From the NCBI GenBank assembly GCA_048939725.1, contig JBHLPG010000056.1, positions 1 to 19,001 of the forward strand: a stretch of DNA of 19,001 nt, in the 5' to 3' direction. This DNA is from Promethearchaeota archaeon (GTDB lineage Archaea > Asgardarchaeota > Heimdallarchaeia > Hodarchaeales > Hodarchaeaceae). The position numbers and the translations under genes were made by a program. Positions 811-19,001 of the stretch are shown piece after piece; position 1 is the first letter of the stretch, and the number at the start of each line of letters is the position of its first letter. The notes under the pieces are model-generated. The model saw only the letters and a program-made list of their open reading frames with translations. It searched no databases and was not told where the DNA came from.

Positions 811-816
811 ATAGCT

Positions 817-2687: not shown

Positions 2688-2702
2688 CAAGGAGAACGAG
2701 TA

Positions 2703-4088
2703 TTGGAAGTAGCAGTAGATCTACATGCTCATTCAGTTTTTGCCGGTGGAACCCAAGCCCTCTCAATAACACCCAAAACAGAAGCTGATAATCAGAAAAA
2801 GGCTATTTCTCATTTATCAAAAACGAATCAAACAATGCCATTAAAGGGTATTGATGTCATTGGTACAGGAGATTGTCAATTCACCTTATGGACTAATATA
2901 CTTAAAGAAATTCTCATTGAAGATATGGAAGGTGTCTTTCTGCTTCAAGATCAGAGAAAGACTCGCTTCATTCTACAAACAGAGATGATATTTACAGCAA
3001 AAATAGGTAAATACTCAAAAGAGACACATATTATCTTTCTTTTCCCTAATTTTTCTTCTGTGGATGAATTTCGTACATTACTAGATAGATGGGGGGTTAA
3101 ACATAAAAAAATGGCAAGACCATTTATTACCTGTAAATCCTCTAGTCAGGTTGCTCAGCGTCTTCATTCTATTTTAGATTTGGATCCTTGGATTGAAGCC
3201 ATTCCCTCCCATATAATGACACCACAAGGTGTTTTTGGAACTGGAAAAGGAAATATTCGAATTAACCACTTAGAAGATTTTTTTGGTTCTGCTACCTCAA
3301 GATTGCAAGTCTTTGAGACTGGATTATCCGCTGATCCAGAATTTTTATCTTTGATCCCAGAATTAGACGATAAAGTGCTAATTTCAAATTCTGATGCACA
3401 CTCAAGTGCTTTACATAGGATGGGACGCGAATTTACGGTGGTATCTACCTTAAAAACTGATTATAAGAATATTATCAAGGCTTTGCGTAATAATAATGTC
3501 TTGTATACTGCTGAATTTCCTCCAGAAGAAGGACGGTTTTTTCTAACAGGTCACCGAGCTGGAAGGAAACGACCAGGTTTTCATGGTGACAGTGATTACT
3601 GTTTCTTTTCTCCTCAAAATGTACCTTCTCATGATGTTTGCCCAATATGTAATAAACCTCTAACTATAGGTGTATTCCAGAGATGTGTTGAGATTAGTAA
3701 TGCTCAAGGTGGAAAAAGAGAGCTTGGAGGAACTACTTCCTTCAAAAAATTCATTCGTATGGTACCGTTGATAGATATATTGGGTCATGTGCTAGAAATA
3801 AAAACTAAGACTGCAAAATCATTAATCACGAAATATCGACAGATTATAGACATTATTGGCCCCGAACGCGTGTTATGGCAAATGGCCTCTGAAGAAGTCG
3901 AAAGTAAACTGAATGATCATATAGAAAACCACATTCTGAAAGCAATTCTCAAAGTAAAAGCTGGGGATTTTACATTTGAACCATATGGGTATGATGGAGT
4001 TTATGGTACTCTAGTAATTGGCCAGAGAGGAAATTATAAAAATGTAAATGTGATTCATTCTTCAAAACCAATTCAACAAACACTTTAA
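2703..4088 (+). CDS. Endonuclease Q (PHP-domain nuclease, deaminated-base DNA repair)
   Basis: 461-aa ORF with PHP motif DLHAHS, SHIMTPQGVFG, SNSDAHS, zinc motif CPICNKPLTIGVFQRC, and C-terminal HILKAILKVKAGDFTFEPYGYDGVYGTLVIG, all characteristic of EndoQ. Confidence 0.9.
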   Translation: MEVAVDLHAHSVFAGGTQALSITPKTEADNQKKAISHLSKTNQTMPLKGIDVIGTGDCQFTLWTNILKEILIEDMEGVFLLQDQRKTRFILQTEMIFTAKIGKYSKETHIIFLFPNFSSVDEFRTLLDRWGVKHKKMARPFITCKSSSQVAQRLHSILDLDPWIEAIPSHIMTPQGVFGTGKGNIRINHLEDFFGSATSRLQVFETGLSADPEFLSLIPELDDKVLISNSDAHSSALHRMGREFTVVSTLKTDYKNIIKALRNNNVLYTAEFPPEEGRFFLTGHRAGRKRPGFHGDSDYCFFSPQNVPSHDVCPICNKPLTIGVFQRCVEISNAQGGKRELGGTTSFKKFIRMVPLIDILGHVLEIKTKTAKSLITKYRQIIDIIGPERVLWQMASEEVESKLNDHIENHILKAILKVKAGDFTFEPYGYDGVYGTLVIGQRGNYKNVNVIHSSKPIQQTL

Positions 4089-4130
4089 TCTGTTCTTTTT
4101 GGTTTATACTTCGATTATTCGTTTTAAGAA

Positions 4131-5408
4131 GTGAATATGACCATGGTAAAGGTACCTGCAAATCAAGAGCTGTGTCTCAGATGTAAAGCTGGTAAATTCC
4201 TCTGTGGTCTTCACTATTGTCCCATTATACTTAAGACAAAGGCCTTGTTACCTGTTAGAAAAATCTTACCAAGATTGAGAATAAAGAAAGAATATTACGG
4301 GCCTAGCCCTCCTAGTTTGTTTGTTGGAAGGTTTGGTTATCCAAAGGTTCGATTGGGACCAATGGCAGCATTGAATTGGGAGGATATTCATTTAATGGAT
4401 GAACCTGACCTATGGCGGACAAATATGTCATTAGAAGACGTTGTAAACCTTCGGGCTCAAATGTTTCGATTTATGGCTGAACCAGTAAATGTAACGGATG
4501 TAACATCACCAACTAAGATTCTTGAAATCACACAGGAACAAATTCAATCTTCTACTCCAGTTGATCTGGAAGTAAAGTTTTCTAAAAAGCCTCAATTAAA
4601 CCTAAATTTTGATCGTTATACTCAACCAATGGGTGCACGTATTAGAATAGACTCTATCCAATTGACGACAGTGCCTAAGATTGATCAACAGGTAGATCGT
4701 GTTGTGAGTGATTCTGATATGAATGCTACTTCTGCAGTTACGAAGCTATATACAACTGAGGCTACAGTAACTCAAATTTCAAGAATACTGTCTGCTGGTT
4801 TGTTAGGCCGAACAAAAAATCGAAGATTTGTTCCAACACGATGGAGTATCACGGCTGTTGACGATATGACTGGAAATTACCTTAGAAAGCAGATTCAAGA
4901 TTTTACTGAAATTCAGGATTATCAGGTTTATCACAACTCCTATTTAGATAATGATTTCTGGGTTCTATTTATTCCGAGACGCGTGTGGCACTTCGATTAT
5001 CATGAAACTTGGAAACAAAAAAGTGCATGGAACCTAACAGGATCTGCCCCATTTATCGCAACAGATACAGAAGGCCCTAATGGGCGAACATCATATGCGA
5101 CAAATACTGTTGGAGGGTATTATGCAGCACGATTAGCAGTATTGGAGAAATTATTTCAACTACGAAGAAAAGCCGCGGTTATTGCTTTTAGAGAAGTTGG
5201 GAAAGGATACGCTATTCCATTAGGTGTATGGCAAGTCCGAGAAAACATGCGAAAGGCACTTAGAAAACCAAGTAAAAGATTTTCTAGCTTAGAAGCAGCA
5301 TTAAGATTCATTCATTCCCATCTTACAATACCCATGAAGTATTATCATCAAAAAAGCCCATTACTCAAGCAGAAAACATTGGATGCCTACTTTAAAAACC
5401 AAACATAA
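4131..5408 (+). CDS. Nre-family archaeal DNA repair protein (NreA-like) with C-terminal PCNA-interacting motif
   Basis: 425-aa ORF. N-terminal Zn motif CLRCKAGKFLCGLHYCPI, SPPSLFVGRFGYPKVRLGPM, and RRVWHFDYHETW...; C-terminal QKTLDAYF matches the PIP box consensus QxxLxxYF. GTG start; ATG codons at 4137 and 4143 are alternatives. Confidence 0.88.
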   Translation: MNMTMVKVPANQELCLRCKAGKFLCGLHYCPIILKTKALLPVRKILPRLRIKKEYYGPSPPSLFVGRFGYPKVRLGPMAALNWEDIHLMDEPDLWRTNMSLEDVVNLRAQMFRFMAEPVNVTDVTSPTKILEITQEQIQSSTPVDLEVKFSKKPQLNLNFDRYTQPMGARIRIDSIQLTTVPKIDQQVDRVVSDSDMNATSAVTKLYTTEATVTQISRILSAGLLGRTKNRRFVPTRWSITAVDDMTGNYLRKQIQDFTEIQDYQVYHNSYLDNDFWVLFIPRRVWHFDYHETWKQKSAWNLTGSAPFIATDTEGPNGRTSYATNTVGGYYAARLAVLEKLFQLRRKAAVIAFREVGKGYAIPLGVWQVRENMRKALRKPSKRFSSLEAALRFIHSHLTIPMKYYHQKSPLLKQKTLDAYFKNQT

Positions 5409-5548
5409 GAGCTTATCCTTCCTCGTCTCATACTAGAATAAATAAATAATCAGATTTCCCTCCTTCTATTGACCACATTTCATTGAAAGATTCCCTTGCC
5501 ATAGTAATAGAAGTCTTTAAATCGAAATACTGATCTAGTCCATAACTG

Positions 5549-5917
5549 GTGATTATTCTCGTGGGTTATTACGAATCTCTAACTGCAGCCATTACCCGTT
5601 ATTACGTCTTTAGCGGTCTTTTTCGTGAGGGCGATGAACAGATGACTTTTGAAGTAGCTGACGCAAATTTGATTGAAGTAGGCCAGACTGTGGAAAAAGA
5701 ATTCGCAGGAAGCGCCCGAGCTTTCTTTATTGAACTAGATAGCTTTGATGACGAAACATATCAATGTGAAATCATCATTGGATTCACATTATGGCCCTAT
5801 GAAGACGATGAAAATGAAGAAAAGCTTATTCTAGATAGTTTACGTGAAGAGCTCGAAAAAATAGGTTTTGTAGAGGATGATGCATATTATCTGGGGGATG
5901 GGCCTGATAGGCGCTAA
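5549..5917 (+). CDS. Small acidic hypothetical protein
   Basis: 122-aa ORF, GTG start (alternative GTG at 5561). Amphipathic alpha/beta-like sequence; no recognised family. Confidence 0.55.
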   Translation: MIILVGYYESLTAAITRYYVFSGLFREGDEQMTFEVADANLIEVGQTVEKEFAGSARAFFIELDSFDDETYQCEIIIGFTLWPYEDDENEEKLILDSLREELEKIGFVEDDAYYLGDGPDRR

Positions 5918-5950
5918 AATGTCTTTAGATTATTTTCTAGAGTGAGCACC

Positions 5951-6904
5951 TTACATTTCTATATGATGATAATATTTGATCCTCTTCCCATAAATCTGTT
6001 GAAACGTCATATGAACAGTTTGGGGTGGGATTAAACCCGCTTCAGTAATGTAGGCCGAGATATTATAACGATCTATTGTTTCAAAAGCAGGGTTCAGGAT
6101 TTTTATTCCTGCGGGAACATCCTCATCCCAAATTTCAAAAGGAGCACGCATTTCGATTTCACTAAGACGGCCAATACTTGTAGCTTGATCATATTTTAAG
6201 AGTGATGTGCATATATACAACGGAATGTGTTCTTCTTCAGCTGCTAAAGCACATAAACGGGAACCAATCTTATTTAAGGCAACACCTTCAACAGTTATCG
6301 CATCTGCTCCCATAAAAACCATATGAGGATTAAAAATATTCATTGCCCACCGCATTGCAGAATCTACAATGTGTGTAACACGAATATTATGATTTATCAG
6401 CCTTTTAGCTGTCTTTCTGCCTTGGTACAGGGGTCTTGTTTCAGTAGAAATAACTTCGAAATCTTTCCCTTGTTTTGCAGCCTCTAGAAATATTCCTACA
6501 GTGATGGAGGAATGACAGTGAGTGAAAACTCTTGAGCCATCTTGAATTCTCTCAGCACCAGTTTTAAAAATTTTCAATTTAGCATCATTTATGAGGTCAA
6601 TATACTTCTTACCATGTTCTACAGCAGACTCTTTTCCATCAAATTGAATCCCAGTCATCACATAACGTAAACCGTTCCTTAATGCTGGTTCAGTTACTCT
6701 TACCTTACTGAGCTGATCAACAACAACCTCTAAATGATCAAATAATTCTTTTTCTTTTAATGGAACAGTCTTTGCATGATTTGCGAAAGCACGAACCCCG
6801 AAAATAGCTACATTTGTGGCACCTTGAATAGTCAGATTTCTAATTTCCTTCATTGTAATTTTTAGCGCACGATACTCTGGGGTTTCTACAAAATTGTTTT
6901 TCAC
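5951..6904 (-). CDS. Ribose-1,5-bisphosphate isomerase (eIF2B-related, archaeal nucleotide-salvage type)
   Basis: 317-aa ORF, GTG start. FTHCHSSITVGIFLEAAKQGKDFEVISTETRPLYQGRKTA, MVFMGADAIT and NKIGSRLCALAAEEEHIPLYI match the eIF2B-alpha/R15P isomerase family. Distinction from other eIF2B-like paralogues rests on the THCHSS and GADAI context. Confidence 0.82.
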   Translation of the reverse strand: MKNNFVETPEYRALKITMKEIRNLTIQGATNVAIFGVRAFANHAKTVPLKEKELFDHLEVVVDQLSKVRVTEPALRNGLRYVMTGIQFDGKESAVEHGKKYIDLINDAKLKIFKTGAERIQDGSRVFTHCHSSITVGIFLEAAKQGKDFEVISTETRPLYQGRKTAKRLINHNIRVTHIVDSAMRWAMNIFNPHMVFMGADAITVEGVALNKIGSRLCALAAEEEHIPLYICTSLLKYDQATSIGRLSEIEMRAPFEIWDEDVPAGIKILNPAFETIDRYNISAYITEAGLIPPQTVHMTFQQIYGKRIKYYHHIEM

Positions 6905-7286
6905 AATTAATCCTCTCCTAGGAAATTAACCAGCGGATTAAGATACTTTTTTACCTTTACTTAATATGTCTATTACAATCAAAAAACGTAGACTTGATTC
7001 TTCCACTCCAGCCTAGGGTGCTGGTTCCATTAAATTCGATGTTTCAAAGCTAACTAATAAAAATTTAAAAGCAAAAGGAACATACAGTTTAAGAATCACG
7101 ATAATCAGCCTAATCGTACTTTTTTGAATGTAATTAACTTCTCACAATTATTTTTTATTATCCCAAGAGCTTTATTTGTAAAAATTTATGAGTGAAGGCT
7201 AAAAAGTTTTACATAAATAACTGATTTATTTTCCTTAGGAGCAATGACTGATCTATAGCGATCGGTGGTTACCACTGTCAAGCATA

Positions 7287-8225
7287 CTGCGAAGAATATT
7301 CAAAGGTAAGCCTGTTGAGAAATACGAAATAACTATCATTGGTCTCGACGGTGCAGGAAAAACTACAATCGTGAATCGATTATTACGCTCTGAATTTGTC
7401 CCTACAACACGAACTCTAGGTGTTAACTATCGTACTGTAAAATATCGTCAGATAGAGTTCAATTTGGTTGATTTGGGGGGGCAGGAAATCTATCGAAATC
7501 TTCTTTGGCACGATTCTTTAGATAAGGCTTCAGCTATCGTTTTTGTGTTAGATAGTGCTGATATTCGTATTTCCGAGGCATCTGAGGCTTTCTGGGATTC
7601 AATTCAGCGCAATGAAAAGGTTCCTGTCTTGTTTATTGCAAACAAAATTGATCTTCCAGGTGCTCGAGCATTTGACCGGATTGTTAAAGATCTCGATCTA
7701 CCACGTGCTCAAAGATCAGCGAGGTCCGTTGGACTTTTTCGAATCTCTGCAAAGACTGGTGAGAATTTTTACGATGCATTCGACTGGATAGCTGATATTC
7801 TCACGGGAGAAGAGTCTAAGTTTAAATGTAAGGTACGAGTGGTGATCTTAATCAATTTAGATACCCATCAGATATATACAACGAAATTCACGAACATAGA
7901 TCGTTTTGTTCTAGATCAATTGAATATGGGTATTAGTGAAACAGTAAAAGAGCTGTCAAAGAATTCAACTGGAATGGAGGTAATTACTGCGTCTGATTTG
8001 CAGCTTACTATAGTGAAGAATGATCCTTTAGTGATCGGCCTCATAATAGGCTATTCAGATTCTGTTGTGCGAGCTAAATTGATTGCTGAGAGGCTAATGA
8101 AAACAGCTTCTGCATCAATTGAAATTGATCAATTCGATTCACGAGTACTTTTAAAATTAATGAAGAAACAATGGCCTTTAGACATATACAAGCCACAAGT
8201 GCAAACTGAAGAAGAGACTGTCTGA
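7287..8225 (+). CDS. Arf-like small GTPase with C-terminal extension domain (longin/Roadblock-like fold suspected); start codon non-standard or gene disrupted
   Basis: The ORF track starts at GTG 7371, but in-frame translation upstream gives LRRIFKGKPVEKYEITIIGLDGAGKTTIV, which contains the G1/P-loop GLDGAGKT (7341-7364). Downstream: DLGGQE (G3), NKID (G4), SAKTG (G5), then about 134 extra residues. The 7287 start (CTG) is tentative; the true start lies somewhere in 7248-7323. Confidence 0.85.
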   Translation: MRRIFKGKPVEKYEITIIGLDGAGKTTIVNRLLRSEFVPTTRTLGVNYRTVKYRQIEFNLVDLGGQEIYRNLLWHDSLDKASAIVFVLDSADIRISEASEAFWDSIQRNEKVPVLFIANKIDLPGARAFDRIVKDLDLPRAQRSARSVGLFRISAKTGENFYDAFDWIADILTGEESKFKCKVRVVILINLDTHQIYTTKFTNIDRFVLDQLNMGISETVKELSKNSTGMEVITASDLQLTIVKNDPLVIGLIIGYSDSVVRAKLIAERLMKTASASIEIDQFDSRVLLKLMKKQWPLDIYKPQVQTEEETV

Positions 8226-8228
8226 TAA

Positions 8229-10535
8229 TTAGAGATATTCTTTTATTCCCAGTAAATCCTTTCTACCGATTTCCGATTTACCTAGGAGCTTCTTTTCCAG
8301 TTCCATAAATTCTTTGATAATTCTCTCGTTAATACTGGGATGAATAGCCTTCTTGGCATCATGAAAATGACGTTGTTCAATTAATTCTGTGTTTAAATCC
8401 TCACGGAGAGCAATCATTACCGCTTCGCGGCATATTGCTGCAATATCAGCCCCTACATATCCATCTAGATCACTAGCGAGCTGAGAAAGGTTTACATCAT
8501 TACCTAACTTCATTCCGCTTGTGTGGATCTTTAGAATTTTCTCCCTAGATTTCAAGTCAGGAGGTTTCACTAAAAGTAATCGGTCAAATCTCCCAGGTCG
8601 GAGAAGGGCTGGGTCAATCATATCTGGTCGATTACTTGCTCCTAAAACCATAACATCACGTAAACTTTCTAAACCATCTATTAATGACAAAATTTGGTTT
8701 ACCACACTCTCTGTAACATGGCTTCCACCCGGAAAAGCGCCGCGGCGTGGAGCAATTGCATCTAACTCATCTAAAAAAATAATGGAAGGAGAAGCCTGCT
8801 TAGCTTTCCTGAAAACTTCACGAACGGCTTTTTCGCTTTCACCAACCCATTTTGATAATAATTCAGGTCCTCGAATAGCGATGAAATTGGCTTGACTTTC
8901 AGTAGCGACCGCTTTAGCCAAAAGGGTTTTTCCTGTGCCAGGAGGGCCATAAAGAAGAATGCCATGAGGAGGAGTGACACCATGGCGTTGGAAAATCTTA
9001 GGATGAGCTATAGGCCATTCGACAGCCTCAATAAGTTGTTGTTTCACTGTTTCTAGTCCTCCGATGTCTTCCCAATGGACATTTGGGATTTCAAGCAGTA
9101 CTTCCCTCATAGCTGATGGTTCTGTTATCTTAAGTGCTTCATCAAAGTTTTCTTTTGACACAACTAACTTCGAAAGAATCTCAGGAGTAAGGGGCTTGTC
9201 AAAATCAATTTTAGGCAGGACTTTTCTGAGAGTATGCATTGCAGCTTCTTTAGTAAGAGCAGCAATATCTGCTCCAACAAATCCATGAGTTTTAGCCGCA
9301 TATTCATGTAGGTCAACATCATCAGCTAAAGGCATTCCTCTAGTATGAACTAATAAGACCTCGTAACGGCCATTTTTATCTGGAACTCCGATTTCGATTT
9401 CTCTATCAAATCGGCCAGGCCGACGCAATGCAGGGTCAAGAGCATTCGGACGATTAGTCGCTCCAATTACAATGACTTTACCACGGCTCTTTAAACCATC
9501 CATTAAAGCGAGAAGTTGAGCTACAACACGTCTTTCTACTTCACCAGTAACCTCTTCCCGTTTCACAGCGATAGAGTCCAATTCATCTATGAAAATAATG
9601 CTAGGTGCCTCTTTTTCTGCATTTTGAAATATTTCCCGAATACGTTGTTCACTCTCTCCATAAAATTTAGACATAATTTCTGGACCCGCTATTGAAACAA
9701 AATTCACTCCTGATTCATTTGCAACTGCTTTCGCTAACAGAGTTTTTCCTGTTCCAGGGGGCCCATGTAATAAAACTCCTTTTGGGGGATCAATACCTAG
9801 ACGCTCAAAAAGTTCGGGGTGCTTCATCGGAAGTTCAATCATCTCCCGAACCCTTTTTATTTCCTCTGAAAGCCCTCCAATATCTTCATATGTCACACGT
9901 GGCATCATTCTAAGATCCTTAGGAGCTTCTTCGACAATTGTAACTTCTGTTGTATCTCCTACAGTTACGATGCCTTCTGGATCTGTTGCTACAACTATAA
10001 CTTTAATTTCACCCAAAGAAACAGGGCTTGTTGCCCCAAAGAATCTAGATATAAAATCATCCATTCCTGTACCAGTAGTTCCTCCTCCAGAAGGAGGTAT
10101 CTTCCTGATTTGTCCTGTGATAACTAGTAAATCTCCCCGAGAAACAGGATGATTCTGTAAGCGTTCACGAATAATCTCAGATCGAACTAAAAGACGAATT
10201 CTTTCTTCTGCGGGAGCAATCGTAATACGTTTTGCTTCTCGCTTCCTGATTTTCCGAATTCGAACTGTTTCCCCTAAACTTGTCCCCACATTTCCTCGAA
10301 TCAATCCATCCATCCGAATGATTTTTTTTCCCCGATCTTCTCTTCTTCCAGGTATGACCAATGCACCTGTTTTCTTACCTCCCGTCCTTTCACTGGCAAT
10401 CTCTACAATATCTCCAGTTTCTAATCCATTTTCCCGCATAATAGAATAGTCAACTCTGACTAATCCTCGGCCAACATCACCCTGGTTGGCTTCAACTACT
10501 TTTAAAAGTAGTTCCTTCTCATTATCATCTGTCAT
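8229..10535 (-). CDS. CDC48/VAT/p97-type AAA+ ATPase with two AAA modules
   Basis: 768-aa ORF. CDC48 N-domain; two Walker A motifs ([15 protein letters not shown]), Walker B IIFIDELD and IIFLDELD, and SRH motifs [20 protein letters not shown] and [20 protein letters not shown]. Confidence 0.96.
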
Positions 10536-10602
10536 TTGACAAACAATTCCCTAATGCTTTTTTTCCTTAATTTAATCTAAGTTTGAAAGAATTATAATTA
10601 TT

Positions 10603-11409
10603 TCACCTGTCATTACCTGTTGAATTAATCAATTTATGAAGATATGCTTTTGCAGCAAGGACATCTTTCTTAGCAACCTCTACTGAGTCAGCTGTTTTAG
10701 AAATAATCAGGTGTATATTTTTTTCCTCCTGATATGCCTCAGGAAGTGATTTTATCCATACATCATGCTTTTGACGTACTTGTATTAAGAATGGGGCAAG
10801 TAATGATTCATCTGTAAAAGCTGAGGTGAACTCTGTCTCATAATAACCAATTTGCTTTTGATTTTTTAAAACAGAGATTTTCGTCTCAACTGCTTTATAC
10901 ATCTCCTTCATCTCACGGGGAACCCCTGGAAGACAAAAAATCCATGTATTCGAAAAATCGTGGATAAAAAAGATGCCAGGAGCAGTTCCTACTGGATTAT
11001 CAATAATTTCAGAACCTACTGGAAGAATTGCCATTTTTTTACGTGCTGGTGTAATCTCAGCAGTGTCTACTAGACCCTTATCAAATAGGTCTTTGTAACG
11101 CTTAGTTACCATTGATAAGGCTTCAATGTTAAGTTCAGTATTCACATTTAATGCTTTAGCTAAGAAGATTGCAGTCGAATCATCCCAAGTTGGGCCTAAT
11201 CCTCCTGTAATTAGAATAAGGCGATATCGACCAGAAGATATAAGGAGAGAAATTTCATTTGGAACTACATCTGGGTCATCAGGAAGGGTCAAGATTTTCT
11301 GAACAACAAAACCAAGGTTTGTGAGTTTTTTCGCAAGAAAGTTAGCGTTTGTGTTAACGGTTTTCCCTGACAGTAATTCATTTCCAACAGAAATCAAGCA
11401 CACATTCAT
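10603..11409 (-). CDS. CinA-like / MoCF (molybdopterin-binding) domain protein
   Basis: 268-aa ORF. MNVCLISVGNELLSGKTVNTNANFLAKKLTNLGFVV, ILITGGLGPTWDDST, NPVGTAPGIF and CLPGVPREMKEM are CinA N-terminal domain motifs. No C-terminal deamidase domain. Confidence 0.88.
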   Translation of the reverse strand: MNVCLISVGNELLSGKTVNTNANFLAKKLTNLGFVVQKILTLPDDPDVVPNEISLLISSGRYRLILITGGLGPTWDDSTAIFLAKALNVNTELNIEALSMVTKRYKDLFDKGLVDTAEITPARKKMAILPVGSEIIDNPVGTAPGIFFIHDFSNTWIFCLPGVPREMKEMYKAVETKISVLKNQKQIGYYETEFTSAFTDESLLAPFLIQVRQKHDVWIKSLPEAYQEEKNIHLIISKTADSVEVAKKDVLAAKAYLHKLINSTGNDR

Positions 11410-11730
11410 TTATTAAAAGCCTCAAAAAAGTAAATCTGTTGATTTTACCACTCGATAGACATTTCTTTGGTCAAAACTCCTAAAAAGAAGAATATCTTCT
11501 TAATTTTTCTATCCAAAATGACTTGAATCTTTTCTATGTTCAATATGAGATTAAATTTGTTTAATAGAAATGTATTAATTTTTCTATGAATTATGAAGCA
11601 GGGTACTTATACTACAGAGCTCATTCAACATTTAAAGGTTAAATCTATTTGATCTGATTAGATTAATTTAAAAAAGGAGTAAGCTATCGTGAACTAAAGT
11701 ATGTCATTGTAATACACATATATAACTGAA

Positions 11731-11738
11731 ACATATAA
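11731..11738 (+). promoter_or_regulatory. Candidate TATA box (ACATATAA) upstream of the tubulin-like gene cluster
   Basis: ACATATAAAG at 11731-11740, about 55 nt upstream of the ATG at 11792, in the divergent intergenic region. Confidence 0.3.
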
Positions 11739-11791
11739 AGAACCCTCTCTGGAAGTAGTAACGAAAAGAAACTACACATCATCTTCAAAGG

Positions 11792-14700
11792 ATGCTTGTT
11801 AAAATGTCATCGGAAGGAAAGCTTCTGGTTTCAAAAGAAGTACTTCATAAAATTAGAGATTTAGTGACTGAGTTACGCTCAATTGACCCCACAGTGCAAG
11901 TTGTCTCCGCATTAAATGAAGCCCAAAAATTAGTGATAGAAATCGAAAAACTAGAGAAAGCCTTACCAAAAGCTGGTTTCTTTAAAAAGAGGGGAATTAA
12001 TAAAACTCTTACTCAAGATAAGGAAAAGTACAACAAGCTGACAGAGGAGTTACTAAACGCTCTTTTGGTTGGATTTCGTAAAATTTACTTTGATCTGGCA
12101 AATAACATCAAAGAAATAGCTAAATTTATCCCCCAGGAAACAGAAACTATTCGGAAACTGCAAATTCCAAGCTTTGATGTAAACGAAATCCTGAAGTTTA
12201 GTTCACAAGTTCTGAGGACATATAACCAGATTTCTGAGGTTTTACGAGGGAAAAATGTTTCAATTTTGTTATTTAATCGTGAGATTATCGAGCTTTATGG
12301 AAAATTTGTTAATTTTGATGAAGAAAAGGTTCAAGTGACAAATCAGACGACAAAAACAAGTATTCATGTGATGACAATACCCGATTTACTTGAAGTTTAT
12401 AGTCTTTTAGATGCTGAAAATGCGTATCTAAAGCAGCGGAGGAAAGGTACAGAAGGCAAAATACAATTGGCAATTGTTCAAATGTCCTCTGAACTACAAC
12501 AGCATATTGATACTGTTGCATCAATTGGTTTAGACCTTTGGAATAAAATTGATATTTTGAAAGAGGAAGTTCAAGACGTTCAGACAAGTGCGGACAGAAC
12601 AACTTCAGTTGAAACTCTTATCTCGTTAGAGAAACGACTTAATTCCCTTAGTAATGAGTTTATCAACATTTTACGGACATATGAAATATCCCTTAAGACA
12701 GAAACAGATGATCAAATTGGACGAATAATTCAGATCTTTGGGAAGGAAGGACTAGAGTCTACTTTTTCCCCAGCTCCAGAAACAGATATATCATCTACAA
12801 TTATTCCAACTATTATCCAGGATATCGAGAAAATTCGTTCTTGGCGCCAACAGCAGATAATTGCTACAAAAAAGATTCTTAGTACATCAGAGCTAATCAA
12901 TTCATCCAAAGCAATTCGTGCGATGAAGATACCAGTCCCTCCTAACATTGAGAAAGATGTACGGGCGATAGAGAAAGAAGCAGCAAAAACAAGCGACCTT
13001 CAAGAGTGGGTAGAACTAGCAAAAAGGTATCATGACTTGAAAACATCCCTTGCTGGCGAATGCCAGAATTATTTTTTCCGACTACTCGAAAATCCACATA
13101 TTCAAGAGGTCATTAACCTAAGTGAAGGGCCACAGATACCTACCATTCGCGATTTTGAAGCTCTTAGTCCCAGTGAATTAAGTAGTAAAGCTCGTGAGAT
13201 CAAGGATTGGGAGACTCGTTTGGTTGCTTATTTTTCTAAACCCGCTCAACAAAGCCTCAGACAGAATTTATTAAATTTATATGATTCTCGTGAAAGTTTA
13301 CGGGATATTATGTCACCTGAGTTGAAAGAACAAATCGATTATCAAAGAAAGCAGAAGATTGCAGAGGAAATTGATATTCGTGACTTAGTTCATGAGATTG
13401 AGGGGTTGCATAGACTTAATGCAAACATTAAAACTGAGCTTTGGAATAAAATAGATAATGAGATACATCCCATTTACAATCAACTTACAAATCTCGAAAC
13501 AATTCCTCCAAAATTAAAAATACATGTTCCAATTCTCACAATAGACGATTTAAAATCCTTCCGAGAAGAAGCCAGTGAAGCAGCTCAAAAAAGTATTCAG
13601 GAGCTGTTAGATGAATATGAAAAGATACCACTGTGGAAATACAAGATATCCTCCCGAATCCGTGAAAATTTGAAAGCAATTCCTTTTCCTTTAATACCTG
13701 TAGAGACACGATTCGATTTAAGGGAAAAACGTAATCAAATTGTTGATTTAATAGATGATTTTTCAGAACAAGGGAACATTGAAGCCGTAATCAAAGAATA
13801 TATTTCTTTCTTAGAAACAATTGAAGAAAATAAGAAGGAAATTCTTATTGAATTGAAAAAACAAATAGGGAATCTTGAAGGAGTCGATAGAAGACTCTTT
13901 AGATTATTAAAATCTCGGAAAACTAGTTTAATCTATTCTACAGATAAAGAAATAGATAATCTTGATTATTCTGAAGCTTTAACAGAATTCTGGCAATTAT
14001 CTGCCTTTATCGATCGAAAAGCTTCAACATTAGCAGAGCAAATGGAACGTGAGATTTCCTCTCATATACAGGACTATTCAAAACTTCCTAGTCAGTATTC
14101 AGGTTTTTTTGATGAAACCTTGAAACTTATGGAAGAGAAAATGGATGAAATTAAAACCCATAAAGATATTGTCCGTTTAGTTAATGTTTTTGAGAGTTAT
14201 AGCTTGGAAAGCTTACAAATGGCAAAAGATTCCTTAGCCAAACTTCATCAAAATCTCTATAATTGGCTGAGGGTTAGTCTCCCTAGGATAAATGAAATAA
14301 CACCTCTTCATGAAGCGATTTTTAGTGCGGAGAAGAAAGTTGCTGATTTTGAAGCTGAGGAAGTATCTCATGAGCGATTAGCTCACAAATTAAGACAGTT
14401 GATATTCCTTTATGATACGGAAATCTTGGCTGTTTTACTAGCACATGGAGTTCAGGAATCACGAAGGGTTCTGAAAAATGTTAACGACTTGAAAGATGTC
14501 GGGATCAATATTATTGAGTATGTTGGGAGTTATATCGAAAATTTCAGTCAAATAATTGTCAAAAACCAAGAAGATGTTCAATTACGAGAAGTAACTGATG
14601 TTTTCATCGAAATTGATAATTTACAGACTGATACTAAAGCTTGTCGTGAAATTCGATCCATGGGAAAACGCTATATTACTGAAATTCAAGATTCCGTGGA

Positions 14701-15307
14701 ATATTCATTTAATCATTATCAAATTGACTTACGTCAGGATGAACGAGTTGATCTAGCATATCTTAGCAAATTTCAAGAAATAGCAACGACTGATCACGTT
14801 AGTCGTTTAACTGAAGCTATCCTTGAATTAGCTGCAGTTAGAACCTCTGTAATTGAAATTATGAAAGCAATTGAGAAAAGTCGAAATGCTGCTCTACAGG
14901 CCGAGTTGGGGGAGTTAGAATATTATTCTGACATTCAAGAAGTGTTCAAACGATATACAAAGGAAGCATCAGAAAAGATATTCCCATTGTCAGAATTAAT
15001 TAAAGCTCGTGAGGAATTTCTTGATTCTCATGATCTTAGATATATTCTAGAGTTATTACCAAAAATAGATGAGCAAAGAAATGAGTGGAAAAACGTATCA
15101 ATACAGTTAAACCATTGGCACCGAGCTGTTCGAATGTTTCGACCTCGTTACACCCCAACAGAGAGTAGAGATGAAAATTTACGATTTTATAAAGAAATAT
15201 CTAAGAAAATCAAAGATACATATCCTCACAATGAAGTAATTCGTTCTTATTTAAGTCTAGTAATGAAATTACTAATTGAAATTAAATCTGGAATAAAATT
15301 GGAGTAA
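11792..15307 (+). CDS. Giant all-helical / coiled-coil repeat protein (uncharacterised), first gene of the tubulin-like cluster
   Basis: Uninterrupted 1171-aa ORF, ATG start (second ATG at 11804). Rich in Leu/Ile/Glu/Lys with heptad-like periodicity. Recurring units include LWNKID repeated 301 codons apart. Confidence 0.9.
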   Translation: MLVKMSSEGKLLVSKEVLHKIRDLVTELRSIDPTVQVVSALNEAQKLVIEIEKLEKALPKAGFFKKRGINKTLTQDKEKYNKLTEELLNALLVGFRKIYFDLANNIKEIAKFIPQETETIRKLQIPSFDVNEILKFSSQVLRTYNQISEVLRGKNVSILLFNREIIELYGKFVNFDEEKVQVTNQTTKTSIHVMTIPDLLEVYSLLDAENAYLKQRRKGTEGKIQLAIVQMSSELQQHIDTVASIGLDLWNKIDILKEEVQDVQTSADRTTSVETLISLEKRLNSLSNEFINILRTYEISLKTETDDQIGRIIQIFGKEGLESTFSPAPETDISSTIIPTIIQDIEKIRSWRQQQIIATKKILSTSELINSSKAIRAMKIPVPPNIEKDVRAIEKEAAKTSDLQEWVELAKRYHDLKTSLAGECQNYFFRLLENPHIQEVINLSEGPQIPTIRDFEALSPSELSSKAREIKDWETRLVAYFSKPAQQSLRQNLLNLYDSRESLRDIMSPELKEQIDYQRKQKIAEEIDIRDLVHEIEGLHRLNANIKTELWNKIDNEIHPIYNQLTNLETIPPKLKIHVPILTIDDLKSFREEASEAAQKSIQELLDEYEKIPLWKYKISSRIRENLKAIPFPLIPVETRFDLREKRNQIVDLIDDFSEQGNIEAVIKEYISFLETIEENKKEILIELKKQIGNLEGVDRRLFRLLKSRKTSLIYSTDKEIDNLDYSEALTEFWQLSAFIDRKASTLAEQMEREISSHIQDYSKLPSQYSGFFDETLKLMEEKMDEIKTHKDIVRLVNVFESYSLESLQMAKDSLAKLHQNLYNWLRVSLPRINEITPLHEAIFSAEKKVADFEAEEVSHERLAHKLRQLIFLYDTEILAVLLAHGVQESRRVLKNVNDLKDVGINIIEYVGSYIENFSQIIVKNQEDVQLREVTDVFIEIDNLQTDTKACREIRSMGKRYITEIQDSVEYSFNHYQIDLRQDERVDLAYLSKFQEIATTDHVSRLTEAILELAAVRTSVIEIMKAIEKSRNAALQAELGELEYYSDIQEVFKRYTKEASEKIFPLSELIKAREEFLDSHDLRYILELLPKIDEQRNEWKNVSIQLNHWHRAVRMFRPRYTPTESRDENLRFYKEISKKIKDTYPHNEVIRSYLSLVMKLLIEIKSGIKLE

Positions 15308-15347
15308 TATTCCCTATAAACAGATATTAAAAAAAGAGTGTGTCAAA

Positions 15348-16718
15348 ATGTCAATTGAAGGTGGACCAGAATCAGAGATCTTTGCAATTGGAATTGGTGA
15401 ATGTGGTAGTAATCTTGTGGGAAGCTACCTAGCCAGATCTAAGAAAGGCGAGCTACCTCAACGTATTAGAGAATATCTGGTACTAAATACTGATCGTGGC
15501 GATTTATTAAAAGCCCGAAAAAAATATTCCATTTCAAAAAATCGAACTCTTCTCTATTCAGACGCTGAAATTGGTGTCGGGGGAAAATTCTCTGCGGGAT
15601 ACGAATCGGTTATGAACTCTCAAGATATTATTCTAAATCAATTACAAGGTTTGGGCTACGAAGGGATTAGTGGTTTTTGCATTTTTACCAGCTTTGGGGG
15701 TGGAACTGGATGTGGGGGGACTCCTGCTTTAATACAATTGTTAAGAAAGCGGTTCGCTGAGGAGGAAAAGCGTAAGATCTTCATTTATGTTTTTGGGGTC
15801 TTACCATTTGTTAATCAATCATCTGAAGCAGTAAATAGTGTCTGGGCTTTATCAAAATTACTCCGACTTCAGCTTGAGGAAGGAAATATGGGACCTGATT
15901 TAATACTTCTTCTTTCTAACAGAACAATGCTTGAGAGGGTTTTAAGCTGGCAACGTGGGGAATCCGTTGATTTGTTGAGTCGTCAAATAGGAAAAGATCT
16001 AGCTGACTTGAGCAGTGAGCAAGTAAGCTCCAGTATTCCTGCTGTTATTGGCCAAGACGGGACAGCTTATCCAGCTCAGCTAGAAGAAGCATTTGTAGAA
16101 TTGGTTAACCCTCTAGCCTTGGAATCCATAGCTGAAATGTTATCCCCAGGAGTACCTGAAGTTGGGAAAGAAGTCTTACCTACAACTGATATTGGTGATT
16201 TCGCTCTAAAATTAGATAGTGTGGTTGTTCCAGCTATGTTTGATGATTTAGCTGTTTTTCCAGAAGTTGGAGGGATGGATTCACAGCTTTCTACTGCAGT
16301 TGAATATACTCTTTCTAATTGTAGCTTGACAGATATGGGAACAAACCCCACAGCTTCTTCTGTTTTTTCGGTACTCAGTGGACCACAGAATATTGCACGC
16401 GTAGAATATGATCCGCTTTTGAAAAAAGCATTGGCACCTTTTTTAGCTAAAGGAGCAAGTATCTCTCCAACATATTGTGCCTATGATGATGATAATACAA
16501 GAGCATCTCTTCTCCTGTTATTCGGCCTTCCAAAAATCCCAGAACTTCATGATATTCTTGAAGAAGCTAAAGCACTCATAAACCTTCATAGTGGAGACTC
16601 TGAATTAAAACAACATTGGTTTAAACGGTCTAAAGGTACAACACGAAAGGAATTGGAAGAAGCAGTGAGCGATTTAGAAAAATTATTTGGATATTATATT
16701 AAACCAGAAAAAGTTTAA
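15348..16718 (+). CDS. Divergent tubulin/FtsZ-superfamily GTPase
   Basis: 456-aa ORF. T1-like FAIGIGECGSNLVGSYLA, T3-like GVGGKFSAG, T4 signature FGGGTGCGGT (tubulin/FtsZ GGGTGxG), PDLILLLSN and T7-like TTDIGDFALKLDSVVVPAM. Too divergent to be called canonical FtsZ1/FtsZ2 or CetZ by eye. Confidence 0.88.
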   Translation: MSIEGGPESEIFAIGIGECGSNLVGSYLARSKKGELPQRIREYLVLNTDRGDLLKARKKYSISKNRTLLYSDAEIGVGGKFSAGYESVMNSQDIILNQLQGLGYEGISGFCIFTSFGGGTGCGGTPALIQLLRKRFAEEEKRKIFIYVFGVLPFVNQSSEAVNSVWALSKLLRLQLEEGNMGPDLILLLSNRTMLERVLSWQRGESVDLLSRQIGKDLADLSSEQVSSSIPAVIGQDGTAYPAQLEEAFVELVNPLALESIAEMLSPGVPEVGKEVLPTTDIGDFALKLDSVVVPAMFDDLAVFPEVGGMDSQLSTAVEYTLSNCSLTDMGTNPTASSVFSVLSGPQNIARVEYDPLLKKALAPFLAKGASISPTYCAYDDDNTRASLLLLFGLPKIPELHDILEEAKALINLHSGDSELKQHWFKRSKGTTRKELEEAVSDLEKLFGYYIKPEKV

Positions 16719-16732
16719 GGTGCTAGATCAAA

Positions 16733-17794
16733 TTGGACAGAAAAGATCCCCCAAGGTTTGAATACACTAACAAAGAACATCCAAACTCTAATGAATCTAA
16801 TGAAAAATCATCTGACCAAGATGAAGAAAAACTCCCTTCATCTGATTTTTGGATGTCCAGGGGAAACATGGGTGAGAAGATAAATATCCTTATAGGATTA
16901 AATCTCGTTCTTATAAACTTAGTTTCCTCATTTATGCTAACTAAGGATGATCCTATTCCTGGTGATTTGGTTAAAAGTCTAATCAAAACCCAGGAATTTC
17001 TTAATAAAATGGTCATGCAGCCAGAAAAAGGGTTAGAAATTTTAGAAAATATTGAAATAGTTTACTCCAAAGTGGCCACATTAATGGAGGGAGTTACAAA
17101 TTCTACTATGTCAACCATTGCTTTAGAAAAGAAACCTCAGGATGTCCCAGAAAATGTCTTTGGTTTATTTCAAAGAAATGCAGTCTACCTAGATAAATGG
17201 GGGATAATTGAAAGTATCGAAAACTTAATCGCTTCTTACTCAAATTTATCTCATATAGGTTTTCCGAATTTTTACTTCACTGCGAGTAAAGAGTTGCATC
17301 GTTATGAATTGACACAGGATCCTGTTTCAAACCAATATGATATTATTCAAATACCCTCCTTTCAACTTAGAAATCTGGTAAGTAAGTTATTACGTGAAGC
17401 ACCCGCAGCCCGTTTATTACAAAATCTTCGGAAAATGTTTCCTGCAGAAGAAGATTCAGCTCTTACTTCAATAGAACAAGATGAAATCCATAACATTGTA
17501 GAATTGTATTATAAAAACATTTCAGAATATTTTAGCGGAACTCGCAGCTTGCAGGATTCTCTCCGCATCTCATCAGGGATCTTAAAGAACTATAACCTAG
17601 GAACAGGAGATTTGGAATCAAGAATACCTAATGTTTCTTTTAATATTACAAAAGAAATCAATTTAGAGCTTCAAAATACGGAGAATATATTGAAACAGTA
17701 TATATTATCTGAAACCATCATCCTGATCCATCGATTGAATGATTCACTCTTACAGAGTGAAAGATTTGTCCTCTTCTTAAGACATCTAAAATAA
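16733..17794 (+). CDS. Uncharacterised helical protein with disordered N-terminus and one hydrophobic segment (possible membrane anchor)
   Basis: 353-aa ORF, TTG start 14 nt after the tubulin-like gene's stop. Residues 1-45 are polar/acidic and low-complexity; residues 50-69 are INILIGLNLVLINLVSSFML; the rest is predicted helical. Confidence 0.75.
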   Translation: MDRKDPPRFEYTNKEHPNSNESNEKSSDQDEEKLPSSDFWMSRGNMGEKINILIGLNLVLINLVSSFMLTKDDPIPGDLVKSLIKTQEFLNKMVMQPEKGLEILENIEIVYSKVATLMEGVTNSTMSTIALEKKPQDVPENVFGLFQRNAVYLDKWGIIESIENLIASYSNLSHIGFPNFYFTASKELHRYELTQDPVSNQYDIIQIPSFQLRNLVSKLLREAPAARLLQNLRKMFPAEEDSALTSIEQDEIHNIVELYYKNISEYFSGTRSLQDSLRISSGILKNYNLGTGDLESRIPNVSFNITKEINLELQNTENILKQYILSETIILIHRLNDSLLQSERFVLFLRHLK

Positions 17795-17885
17795 TAACTT
17801 TTTTATGAAATAAGACATAATTAAAAATATAAATTTCATAATTATTTCTTGTCAAGACTGAAGGAACTATGTGTGAGGTAAGAAT

Positions 17886-18752
17886 ATGGGAATAGAAGAT
17901 GGTATTAAGAATATCCAACAGATGACAATAGAGAATAAGCAATCCCTTAATAGAATTAAAGATGTTGTAAGCTCACTTCAAGGATTTCAAGATCCTTCTG
18001 AATCAATCCAAAAGCTCTCAATGGTAATACTTGGTTTTGAAGAAAACATTAATTCCTTGCTTAAACTAGTTGAATCCTCTCGAATAAGTTCAGAGTTACA
18101 ATCTTCAATTGAAAGCCTTCCTCAAATGATCTCAAGCTTAGAGGAATCACTTGGTAAGATTCTTAGTACTTTTGAAAAAACTTCTGAAGAAACAAAAAAT
18201 GATTTAAAATTTATAAAAGTCAGTTACGTTGAAGACGTTGTTGGAAATATGCGTAATTTATCTAACAAAATTACTGAAGAGGTGGGTGGTTCCAACAACA
18301 GAATTACCGCGTTATATGAAGCAACAGTTGACCATTTTGGGGAAATAGTGGAAAAACTTAACAATGTTGAAAGTAGTTTAAACGCTCTAGTTGAGAATCA
18401 AGCAGATCAATTAGCCACAGTAGCAGATCTCAGGGATCGTGTTAGTGCAATCATTCAGGTTGAGTTAGCATCACTAAGAGATCGAATTGCAATATATCTT
18501 GAGACATCGATAAATGAGTTAAAAACATCAGTAACAGAACGCTTGGCTACCCAGGATGGTACTCTTCAAAACTTGACAAACGTCACCCGACAATTAACCC
18601 AGAACATTAATGCTTTACCTGAATTAGTAAAACAGCAAATAGAAGCAGCAGTTGAAACAAGAGTCACCACTGAACTCACTTCAATGGAAAAAGAAATGAA
18701 AAAGATGACTGCTTTTATTATCAGGGCCATGAAAGACAAAGATTCTTCATGA
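17886..18752 (+). CDS. Coiled-coil protein (uncharacterised)
   Basis: 288-aa ORF, ATG preceded by GAGGTAAGAAT (SD-like). Long heptad-like stretches such as LATVADLRDRVSAIIQVELASLRDRIAIYLETSINELKTSVTERLATQ. Confidence 0.85.
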   Translation: MGIEDGIKNIQQMTIENKQSLNRIKDVVSSLQGFQDPSESIQKLSMVILGFEENINSLLKLVESSRISSELQSSIESLPQMISSLEESLGKILSTFEKTSEETKNDLKFIKVSYVEDVVGNMRNLSNKITEEVGGSNNRITALYEATVDHFGEIVEKLNNVESSLNALVENQADQLATVADLRDRVSAIIQVELASLRDRIAIYLETSINELKTSVTERLATQDGTLQNLTNVTRQLTQNINALPELVKQQIEAAVETRVTTELTSMEKEMKKMTAFIIRAMKDKDSS

Positions 18753-19001
18753 TTCAGTAACGATTCGTTCAAAATTATACGCTTCAAATAGCCCTCGCTC
18801 TGTTAAGTATTTGAATAAATCAAGAATCTTCTCGCCATTATCCGTACCAAAACGTTCTAGACAATCATTGAAAGAAACCATGCTGTTTTTATCTAACATA
18901 TCATCAATTAATTCATCAAGGCTTTCCTGAGGAATATCATCCTGAATTTCTAGAGTTTTAGGAAATTCTTTGTAAAATGAATATAGCTTCCCCCCACGAG
19001 G
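18747..19001 (-). CDS. 3' end of a hypothetical protein gene running off the right edge (5' end outside the window)
   Basis: Reverse-complement frame is open for 84 codons: PRGGKLYSFYKEFPKTLEIQDDIPQESLDELIDDMLDKNSMVSFNDCLERFGTDNGEKILDLFKYLTERGLFEAYNFERIVTES followed by TGA. Not in the ORF track, presumably because it is partial. Confidence 0.6.
   Translation of the reverse strand, partial: PRGGKLYSFYKEFPKTLEIQDDIPQESLDELIDDMLDKNSMVSFNDCLERFGTDNGEKILDLFKYLTERGLFEAYNFERIVTES

Follow-up and report, generated by a model that had tools for sequence, protein, structure and literature searches.

Introduction

Which member of the tubulin superfamily is encoded near the end of a 19,001-nt stretch of Asgard DNA, and with which proteins might it work? 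The stretch (hereafter the window, by which we mean its full length) comes from a Hodarchaeaceae member of the Promethearchaeota (GenBank assembly GCA_048939725.1, contig JBHLPG010000056.1, positions 1 to 19,001 of the forward strand), and the gene in question encodes a 456-residue protein. An earlier note, made from the letters of the sequence, had read this protein as a divergent GTPase of a separate family whose insertion might alter filament geometry. Our analyses place it in Asg.Tub, an Asgard family that has already been catalogued, and reveal that its gene is the central member of a conserved three-gene module. We consider it likely that the window protein is an Asg.Tub member acting within a GTP-binding, polymerising, non-division cytoskeletal module that includes two helical partner proteins.

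The tubulin-like gene is the centre of a conserved three-gene module

In the window, the tubulin-like gene stands between two open reading frames (ORFs) of the same strand, 40 nt from the 1171-residue ORF upstream and 14 nt from the 353-residue ORF downstream. The genes and the spacer concerned are as follows.

11792-15307, plus strand: upstream partner, all-alpha, 1171 residues, of unknown family, ending 40 nt before the tubulin-like gene
15348-16718, plus strand: Asg.Tub-family tubulin-superfamily GTPase gene, 456 residues, ATG start (from the ORF and its translation)
16719-16732, plus strand: 14-nt spacer with a Shine-Dalgarno-like GGTG (16719-16722), 10 nt before the downstream TTG start (read from the sequence)
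16733-17794, plus strand: downstream partner, a 353-residue helical protein of unknown family, TTG start, with conserved HRY, LxEAPxARLLQ and GGxxLExR motifs
17886-18752, plus strand: fourth gene, a 288-residue coiled-coil-like protein with weak coiled-coil-type Pfam matches

The short spacer and its Shine-Dalgarno-like element are consistent with co-transcription and translational coupling of the tubulin-like gene and its downstream neighbour.

A scan of species-representative genomes yielded 123 Asg.Tub loci, the best 80 of which are all Asgard. Gene order was compared in 85 loci, namely the window itself, the 80 just mentioned and four further ones; they derive from metagenome-assembled genomes (MAGs) of the Hodarchaeales/Heimdall, Thor, Hermod, Sif and Borr lineages. 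The full triad, all on one strand and spaced by roughly 0-50 nt, was recovered by ORF scan in 71 of the 85 loci and by tblastn in two more. By ORF scan, 78/85 loci have a homologue of the large partner (895-1400 residues) directly upstream, to which tblastn adds two others, and a homologue of the small partner lies directly downstream in 78/85. The apparent lack of the large partner at two loci (L010 and L049) was traced by tblastn to runs of N, and most of the remaining loci without a full triad are contig ends. The arrangement extends to a distant, Baldr-type locus, where a tubulin-like gene of 41 % identity stands between genes for a 1023-residue and a 299-residue protein.

The same gene order emerged from the opposite direction. 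A reciprocal metagenome scan, started from the small partner by means of a Thor-type alignment and covering independent contigs, found Asg.Tub directly upstream of the small partner in all 22 of the 22 loci with enough upstream room, and the large partner precedes Asg.Tub wherever the contig reaches that far. Across Thor, LC-3 and Hodarchaeales, Asg.Tub retains 50-57 % identity, as against 20-27 % for both partners, with the same rank order in the metagenomes; this stronger constraint on the central protein may be of the kind that a polymer imposes. The published description of the genomic context of Asg.Tub mentions only "unknown genes, mostly coiled-coil" (PMC9871819). The almost invariable conservation of the triad, from Baldr to Hodarchaeales and Thor, is the new point here, and suggests a three-part cytoskeletal module.

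Two loci depart from the usual order. At B3_Heim (L016, 2154-5762), a 1202-residue ORF with no Pfam match and unlike the large partner is interposed between the large partner and the tubulin-like gene. At L017, with a near-identical small partner, the large partner was not found within 6 kb upstream.

The window protein is an orthologue of Asg.Tub

The sequence of the window protein is present in NCBI as MFX1506004.1 (100 % identity), a "hypothetical protein" entry assigned to a Promethearchaeota (Asgard) MAG. With 57 % identity (E = 5e-162, 98-99 % coverage), it also resembles OLS26264.1 of Heimdall LC_3, which is one of the four seeds of Asg.Tub-C.hmm. Asg.Tub was defined as a novel CetZ-like Asgard paralogue group, with seeds from Heimdall and Thor (Santana-Molina et al. 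2023, PMC9871819), and the clade has also been named the "CetZ-related Asgard archaeal clade" (bioRxiv 10.64898/2026.02.15.705738). In our family alignment (A1), the C-terminal region of Asg.Tub is aligned throughout. Judged by its sequence, the window protein is a Hodarchaeales-type Asg.Tub orthologue of the same family, with no difference in kind; length class (440-475 residues) and confinement to Asgard agree as well. The notion of a separate family was thus half right: the protein does lie outside canonical FtsZ1, FtsZ2 and CetZ, as the published tree also has it, but its family is not new, being the Asg.Tub of Santana-Molina et al. 2023.

Of the 152 homologues returned by a database search, 120 were listed, each with an identity of 52 % or more; apart from a few partial sequences, most have 440-480 residues. 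All named homologues among them belong to Asgard MAGs (Hodarchaeales/Heimdall, Thor, Hermod and "Loki/Promethearchaeota"). The family profile was also scored against 1.84 billion representative proteins, giving 195 matches at E <=1e-3. Two full-length family clusters (50 % identity level) stood out at 734 and 479 bits, the second drawn from MAGs mostly labelled Baldrarchaeia, one being labelled Odin and a few carrying other names. After the family came one orphan at 149 bits, and all others scored at most 76 bits and matched in the GTPase domain only. We thus widen the known range of Asg.Tub to Hermod, Sif, Borr and Baldr, and the Hodarchaeales paralogues, the signature motifs and the three-gene operon described in this work are likewise new here.

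The 149-bit orphan (P0140; L086 7001-8374, on a Logan contig of SRR7811641) is a 457-residue protein with an AGGTGCG T4 motif. A large partner is missing, and an unknown ORF of 262 residues overlaps the gene; SMC and ScpA are encoded about 2.8 kb upstream of it, beyond four other same-strand genes. Two further orphans (P0149 and P0151) also carry the Cys of GGTGCG. These three proteins may be intermediates between Asg.Tub and CetZ-like groups.

Nucleotide-binding loops and the T7 acidic pair are conserved

The Pfam Tubulin/FtsZ GTPase domain (PF00091) matches residues 10-171 with E = 1.4e-17 and 65.1 bits, against a gathering cut-off of 33, so that the resemblance to the superfamily is not due to chance. 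FtsZ_C and Tubulin_C gave no Pfam match in the 456-residue protein. The ORF and motif coordinates given by the earlier note proved exact to the base when re-checked, and the elements of the nucleotide site, with invariance judged in the family alignment, are as follows.

15390-15413, plus strand: T1 phosphate loop GIGECGSN (residues 15-22), of the tubulin/CetZ "GQCG" type and not the FtsZ "GGGGG" type
15486-15494, plus strand: T2 loop N47-T48-D49 ("NTD", FtsZ/CetZ-like), N47 and T48 invariant and equivalent to FtsZ N43/T44
15573-15584, plus strand: T3 loop G76-V-G78-G79, with G76, G78 and G79 invariant and G78 equivalent to FtsZ G71
15696-15719, plus strand: T4 signature GGGTGCGG (residues 117-124), of which the GGGTGCG part is residues 117-123, 15696-15716
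15804-15827, plus strand: T5 loop P153-F154-V-N-Q157-S-S-E160, with P153, F154, Q157 and E160 invariant and P153/F154 equivalent to FtsZ P134/F135
15918-15920, plus strand: Asn191 of T6, a base/ribose contact, invariant and equivalent to FtsZ N165
16074-16142, plus strand: central helix H7 (residues 243-265) with base-contact Asn254, a DSSP helix in the model
16179-16202, plus strand: T7 loop and start of H8, P278-T-T-D281-I-G-D284-F, with a catalytic-type acidic pair; TTDIGDF is residues 279-285, 16182-16202

In T1, residues G15, G17, E18, C19, G20 and N22 are invariant, and GECGSN is present in 112 of the 120 family members; GGGTGCGG, aligned to G105-G111 of Escherichia coli FtsZ, occurs in 117. 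The H7 residues N254, P255, L256 and A257 are invariant, N254 being equivalent to FtsZ N186 and to the H7 Asn of CetZ. In T7, P278, T279, D281 and D284 are invariant, and PTTD[LI][AG]D[YF] is found in about 118 of the 120 members. The Baldr-type member retains the T1, T4 and T7 signatures in spite of its 41 % identity, and we take these three motifs as sequence signatures of the family.

The insertion discussed below caused hhalign to mis-register the stretch between H6 and T7; the variable loop was therefore excised and the protein realigned with CetZ and FtsZ. G20/N22 then correspond to G22/N24 of E. coli FtsZ and G117-G123 to G105-G111, while D281 falls on FtsZ D209 and on the Asp of the CetZ "VVD" motif, and D284 on FtsZ D212 and the CetZ E/D position. 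T279 sits at the position of FtsZ N207, as judged by spacing. These alignments bear out the claim that both acidic T7 positions are kept and Asn is replaced by Thr. They equally support the retention of the nucleotide loops, as the contact residues of T1-T6 and H7 align with those of FtsZ and CetZ and are invariant across the family. Relative to FtsZ, only two contact positions have changed, T110 to C122 and E138 to Q157, both family-invariant. The window protein is probably competent as a GTPase, as far as residue conservation can tell.

The Cys of T4 had been singled out as unusual, rightly: Cys122, at the variable position of the superfamily pattern [GSA]GGTG[STA]G, stands where E. coli FtsZ has Thr and where the CetZ consensus GGGTGSGG, like tubulin, has Ser. 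Among the 149 nearest non-redundant representatives, this position is S in 61, T in 14, N in 13, G in 9, C in 8 and A in 6, and the motif was not found in the other 38, mostly fragments. The T4 Cys is thus unusual, though not unique, as a few orphan relatives likewise have GGTGCG. A second near-invariant Cys, Cys19 of T1 (15402-15404), gives one Cys per phosphate loop together with Cys122 (15711-15713). In anaerobes, this could be a neutral choice of Cys over Ser or a redox- or metal-sensitive feature; that the pair makes nucleotide binding redox-sensitive is speculative.

Predicted structure and the H6-H7 insertion

An AlphaFold2 model of the tubulin-like protein, computed from a 15-sequence alignment, has a predicted template modelling score (pTM) of 0.79 and a mean predicted local distance difference test (pLDDT) of 75. 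Its elements follow the order of tubulin and FtsZ, with S1-S6 and H1-H6, H7 (243-265), the T7 loop, H8 (281-288) and a C-terminal beta-sheet domain. Three further C-terminal helices (398-413, 419-429 and 433-448) resemble H11-H12 of tubulin and CetZ and are absent from FtsZ. In a Foldseek search of the PDB, OdinTubulin was the top match (E = 2e-18, TM 0.67/0.72), almost level with gamma- and beta-tubulin and with CetZ 3ZID (5e-17, TMt 0.76-0.80); tubulins and CetZ were matched at probability 1.00 over about 450-500 alignment columns with TM values of 0.6-0.8. No FtsZ appeared among the top 50 matches. The model, which is predicted to comprise a Rossmann-like GTPase domain, H7 and a C-terminal domain, thus superposes on tubulins and CetZ, in keeping with the tubulin-type fold that had been expected.

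The most conserved surface outside the catalytic site lies in the C-terminal helical region.

16518-16637, plus strand: conserved C-terminal helical region, H11/H12-like, with LFGLPKIPEL (residues 391-400) and HWFKRSKG (residues 423-430)

The conservation of these two blocks (0.87 and 0.82, respectively) equals that of the GTP loops, and we infer that the surface formed by residues 391-430 is a candidate site for partner binding or lateral contacts. The protein ends 8 residues past the last helix and has no FtsZ-type C-terminal tail peptide.

The region between T4 and T7 is where the family departs most in length from its relatives. From G117 of T4 to D281 of T7 there are 164 residues, compared with 104 (G105 to D209) in E. 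coli FtsZ (WP_000462776.1, the reference being taken from an annotated genome) and likewise 104 in CetZ 3ZID, as counted from the phmmer alignment. Of the additional 60 residues, the interval from the S6 Asn to the H7 Asn takes up 42, the T4-S6 interval 14 and the H7-T7 loop 4. An expansion of 50-60 residues around H6-H7 had been claimed; a gain of about 60 residues between T4 and T7 is real, but the H6-H7 share of it is about 42.

15954-16079, plus strand: family-specific H6-H7 insertion (residues 203-244), in which two short additional helices lead into a hypervariable loop, probably disordered, with its core at residues 221-245

The peptide that the earlier note quoted from this region is residues 200-238 (15945-16061). 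The distance from the S6 Asn to the H7 Asn is 63 residues, against 21 in FtsZ, with a family range of 51-70. In the model, the extra helices span residues 205-214 and 218-221, and the next stretch has pLDDT values of 31-47. No other part of the protein has column entropy or a gap fraction (0.39) as high as residues 221-245, whose length varies by about 20 residues among members, while the proximal part, residues 199-220 with the invariant D217, shows moderate conservation. Conservation would be expected of a segment that determines filament geometry, and the insertion core, hypervariable, gap-rich and modelled with pLDDT <50, therefore reads as a flexible surface loop. The proposal that the insertion alters filament geometry thus finds no support here; a flexible spacer or docking loop is more likely.

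The partner proteins and the gamma-tubulin analogy

The large partner is predicted to be wholly alpha-helical, with many helices of 30-45 residues (pLDDT 82, pTM 0.39), and its C-terminal region (residues about 1040-1171) is conserved. It has no Pfam match, with 18 orthologues searched singly, no PDB sequence match by single-sequence or profile search, and Foldseek found nothing significant in the PDB, dynein tail bundles coming closest (E = 0.02, TM <=0.13). The small partner likewise has no Pfam match (17 orthologues searched singly) and no PDB sequence match by either kind of search. A database search with a diverse partner alignment (A3) returned the same 37 Hodarchaeales-type proteins as the single-sequence search, so that the partner model comes from a shallow alignment.

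The small partner carries an N-terminal hydrophobic helix.

16886-16942: hydrophobic helix of the small partner (residues 52-70), with an "..LN..L.." motif and a conserved central Asn

Its KD19 hydrophobicity is 1.6-2.35, where at least 1.6 is transmembrane-like, in 13 of 16 Hodarchaeales-type orthologues, whereas the other lineages have a median of 1.49 and reach 1.73 at most. The helix is a possible lineage-specific membrane anchor. Homologues of the fourth gene were found in 16 loci, all of the Hodarchaeales type, at 90-300 nt past the small partner.

Operons that combine a tubulin-superfamily gene with dedicated partners are known elsewhere, namely TubZ-TubR-TubY, BtubA/B-BtubC, in which BtubC is a tetratricopeptide repeat protein, and artubulin with a Snf7-like gene. 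The module described here is similar in that a gene for a tubulin-fold, presumably polymer-forming protein is accompanied by lineage-specific accessory genes. It differs in its partners, an all-alpha protein of 900-1400 residues and a helical one of about 355 residues, which have no detectable similarity to TubR/TubY, BtubC or Snf7.

The pairing with a large helical protein raises another explanation, by which the window protein would be a non-polymerising tubulin-fold GTPase held in a stable complex with the large partner, much as gamma-tubulin is with GCP, and would serve as a nucleator, cap or regulator. It would account for the obligate-looking genomic pairing with an all-helical protein of 895-1400 residues, for the two paralogous modules in Hodarchaeales, and for the presence of gamma-tubulin from the gamma-tubulin ring complex among the top Foldseek and profile matches. 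A GCP/Spc97-98 origin of the large partner was considered and rejected: no GCP family emerged in Pfam for any of the 18 orthologues, in the PDB profile search or among Foldseek chains. Since the large partner shows no GCP/Spc97-98 match in sequence or fold, the analogy is without homology support. The invariant T7 acidic pair is, moreover, a hallmark of hydrolysis activated in trans across a longitudinal contact, and bona fide tubulins that could be nucleated have been reported in only about 1 % of Asgard genomes, whereas Asg.Tub is widespread. We regard such a complex as unlikely.

Relationship to CetZ, tubulins and FtsZ

Our placement of the family rests on a published maximum-likelihood tree, which contains the 57 % orthologue, and on score gaps. 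In that tree (Fig. 6, PMC9871819), the Asg.Tub clade has 100 % support and a stem of 2.0 substitutions/site and lies outside canonical CetZ and tubulins, as sister to Halo.Tub at only 62 % support. In our comparison of the family profile with PDB sequences, three CetZ structures (4B46, 4B45 and 3ZID) came first (5e-12 to 1.6e-7), followed by OdinTubulin, gamma-tubulin, BtubA and AtubA at about 1e-5 to 1e-6, and no FtsZ was found among the 60 best rows, the weakest of which was at 2e-4. FtsZ, against which the earlier note had measured the protein, is therefore not the right yardstick, the closest relatives by fold and profile being CetZ and tubulins. A validated canonical-CetZ profile matched CetZ at 1e-150 to 1e-43 and FtsZ at 1e-24, while the Asg.Tub profile reached CetZ only at 5e-12; Asg.Tub is therefore far more distant from all others than CetZ is from FtsZ.

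Another possible reading makes the protein a canonical CetZ, the archaeal cell-shape tubulin homologue, working as CetZ1 does in Haloferax. CetZ proteins are the closest solved relatives of Asg.Tub by sequence, phmmer pairs "VTDLGDF" of 3ZID with "TTDIGDF", and two of the listed homologues are automatically annotated "Tubulin-like protein CetZ". The two groups also share the style of T2 and T5, the T7/H8 acidic pair (TDxxD in Asg.Tub; VVDxxE/D or TDLGD in CetZ) and C-terminal helices beyond the FtsZ core. By hhalign, the family aligns with the CetZ profile over both domains (99.6 % probability, E = 8e-25, 350 columns), but at 22 % identity, and low identity extends to the aligned C-terminal domains. 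The signatures differ, GECGSN, GGGTGCGG and PTTDxxD in Asg.Tub standing against GQ[AC]GG[KR], GGGTGSGG and VVDxxE in CetZ, and so does size, CetZ having about 390 residues and lacking the 42-residue insertion and the other extra T4-T7 residues. Asg.Tub is found in Asgard and CetZ in Euryarchaeota/Halobacteriota, and the obligate-looking operon with two partners of unknown families sets Asg.Tub further apart. The published work agrees: its tree keeps Asg.Tub outside the CetZ node, its C-terminal CetZ hidden Markov model (CetZ_C) gave no match to the archaeal tubulin-like groups, and its comparison calls the genomic contexts unrelated (PMC9871819). An identity with canonical CetZ thus appears quite improbable.

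Fold alone would favour a bona fide early tubulin, similar to OdinTubulin or Atub and able to form tubules, for OdinTubulin heads a Foldseek list dominated by tubulins. OdinTubulin, AtubA/B/C and alpha-, beta- and gamma-tubulin are the best fold matches (TM 0.63-0.72), the T1 Cys is tubulin-like, as are the H11/H12-like helices, and some published trees put Asg.Tub between CetZ and tubulins (PMC9871819). Identity to tubulins is, however, only 12-17 %, with profile E-values of only 1e-5 to 1e-6; there is no Tubulin_C match in Pfam, and the T2 "NTD" and T5 "PFxxQ/E" loops are of the FtsZ/CetZ type. Asg.Tub is widespread in the Thor and Hodarchaeales lineages, while bona fide tubulins have been reported in about 1 % of Asgard genomes. 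CetZ-type indels and midpoint rooting were taken by the authors of the tree against an affiliation with tubulins (PMC9871819), and the clade served as an outgroup in a 2026 tubulin study (bioRxiv 10.64898/2026.02.15.705738). We consider this explanation very improbable indeed.

A divergent cell-division FtsZ paralogue it can hardly be: the PF00091 domain, the GTPase-domain architecture, the alignable nucleotide contacts, the T2 "NTD" and the T7/H8 DxxD pair are common to both, but the protein scores 31.2 bits with the NCBIfam FtsZ model TIGR00065, against a cut-off of 295.2, is missing FtsZ_C and the C-terminal peptide, has the longer T4-T7 spacing, finds no FtsZ among its best fold or profile matches, has neighbouring genes that are neither division nor ribosomal genes, and occurs in a group in most of which separate FtsZ1 and FtsZ2 have been reported in the literature.

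A proposed mechanism and the evidence against it

The retained contact residues and T7 acidic pair, together with the modelled tubulin-type fold, make GTP-dependent head-to-tail polymerisation the likeliest mode of action. GTP would be bound by loops T1-T6 of the window protein, and subunits would polymerise head-to-tail, so that each subunit, through its T7/H8 pair D281/D284, could complete the active site of the following one and set off GTP hydrolysis in the manner of FtsZ, CetZ and tubulin. Such binding, with hydrolysis activated in trans within the polymer, is the most probable mechanism suggested by residue conservation and predicted fold. The tubulin-like gene would be co-transcribed with its neighbours, and its product would act with the 1171-residue upstream and 353-residue downstream helical proteins, to which the Hodarchaeales version would add the 288-residue coiled-coil protein. 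The module would form a dedicated non-division cytoskeleton, in which the window protein would not play the part of a division FtsZ.

More broadly, the module may represent an ancient cytomotive system of three components, peculiar to Asgard, whose range from Baldr to Hodarchaeales and Thor would make its presence in an early Asgard ancestor probable, with partner families that have no detectable relatives. It would then be the main non-division cytoskeleton of the tubulin superfamily in Asgard, far more widespread than bona fide Asgard tubulins, and duplicated whole in Hodarchaeales. We put this wider proposal forward tentatively, as a plausible one that we would not yet call probable.

Several points weigh against a polymerising three-part module. 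Operon conservation is evidence of functional linkage, not of physical interaction. At the nucleotide site, Q157 stands where FtsZ and CetZ have a ribose-binding Glu, and T4 has a Cys instead of Ser/Thr. The T7 loop (residues 269-280) and the insertion are modelled at low confidence. No membrane anchor or cargo-binding element was identified, and no biochemical, structural or cell-biological study of any Asg.Tub member was found in the searched literature. Finally, Hodarchaeales possess a second Asg.Tub paralogue of 441-448 residues, about 54 % identical, which has its own large partner of about 1140 residues and no small partner; the small partner is therefore not obligatory. The paralogues occur as JSW11_13745 beside JSW11_03435 and as ACFFDC_14065 beside the window's ACFFDC_07800, and second-paralogue loci are L004/L076 (CP070695.1, about 2.89 Mb), L079, L080, L083 and L084. 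At L004, two genes for Arf/Rag-family GTPases, one of them 737 residues long, come after the second paralogue.

Other genes of the window

The window is AT-rich (GC 0.32-0.41), and its other genes are typical of Asgard, including Roadblock/LC7, a Folliculin-like longin protein, an Arf-family GTPase, Cdc48, Nre and eIF2B. Two loci within it deserve mention.

319-4088, plus strand: four consecutive genes, encoding a Roadblock/LC7-like protein (weak match), a TFIIB-type Zn-ribbon protein, a Folliculin/longin-like protein (437 residues) and a 461-residue protein with a weak ribbon-helix-helix match
7371-8225, plus strand: Arf-family ORF of 284 residues, matched by the Arf profile from position 32, with DxxGQ, NKxD and SAK kept and a C-terminal extension of about 140 residues

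The first may be a set of GTPase regulators in the style of Rag/Ragulator, typical of Asgard "eukaryotic signature" regions. The Arf-family ORF has no P-loop (G1), and no upstream ORF could supply one; a pseudo-GTPase, truncation of the gene or a fault of assembly could each explain this. In the window and at L003 and L004, Arf genes are found close to the module. An insensitive phmmer test (E 1e-5, seeded with the divergent window ORF) recovered the window ORF only and missed the Arf genes of L003 and L004, and we treat the proximity of Arf-family GTPases to the module as incidental.

Two antisense ORFs, of 91 residues (16076-16351, minus strand) and 97 residues (16723-17016, minus strand), overlap the tubulin-like and small-partner genes and are most likely spurious; the 97-residue ORF has no Pfam match.

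Implications

To conclude, Asg.Tub is a widespread and unusually well conserved family whose position between CetZ and tubulins is unstable in published trees, and its interest is increased by the conserved three-gene module, by two partner families without relatives, by a wide Asgard range where tubulins are rare and by the duplication in Hodarchaeales. Our analyses single out D281, D284, C19, C122 and Q157 as residues for mutation and the two obligatory-looking partners for co-expression, and the loop of residues 221-245 would probably tolerate deletion or a tag. Should the triad prove to be a functioning filament system, Asgard would have a third kind of tubulin-superfamily cytoskeleton besides FtsZ and tubulin, and it is the Hodarchaeales, the proposed closest relatives of eukaryotes, that carry the module in duplicate.

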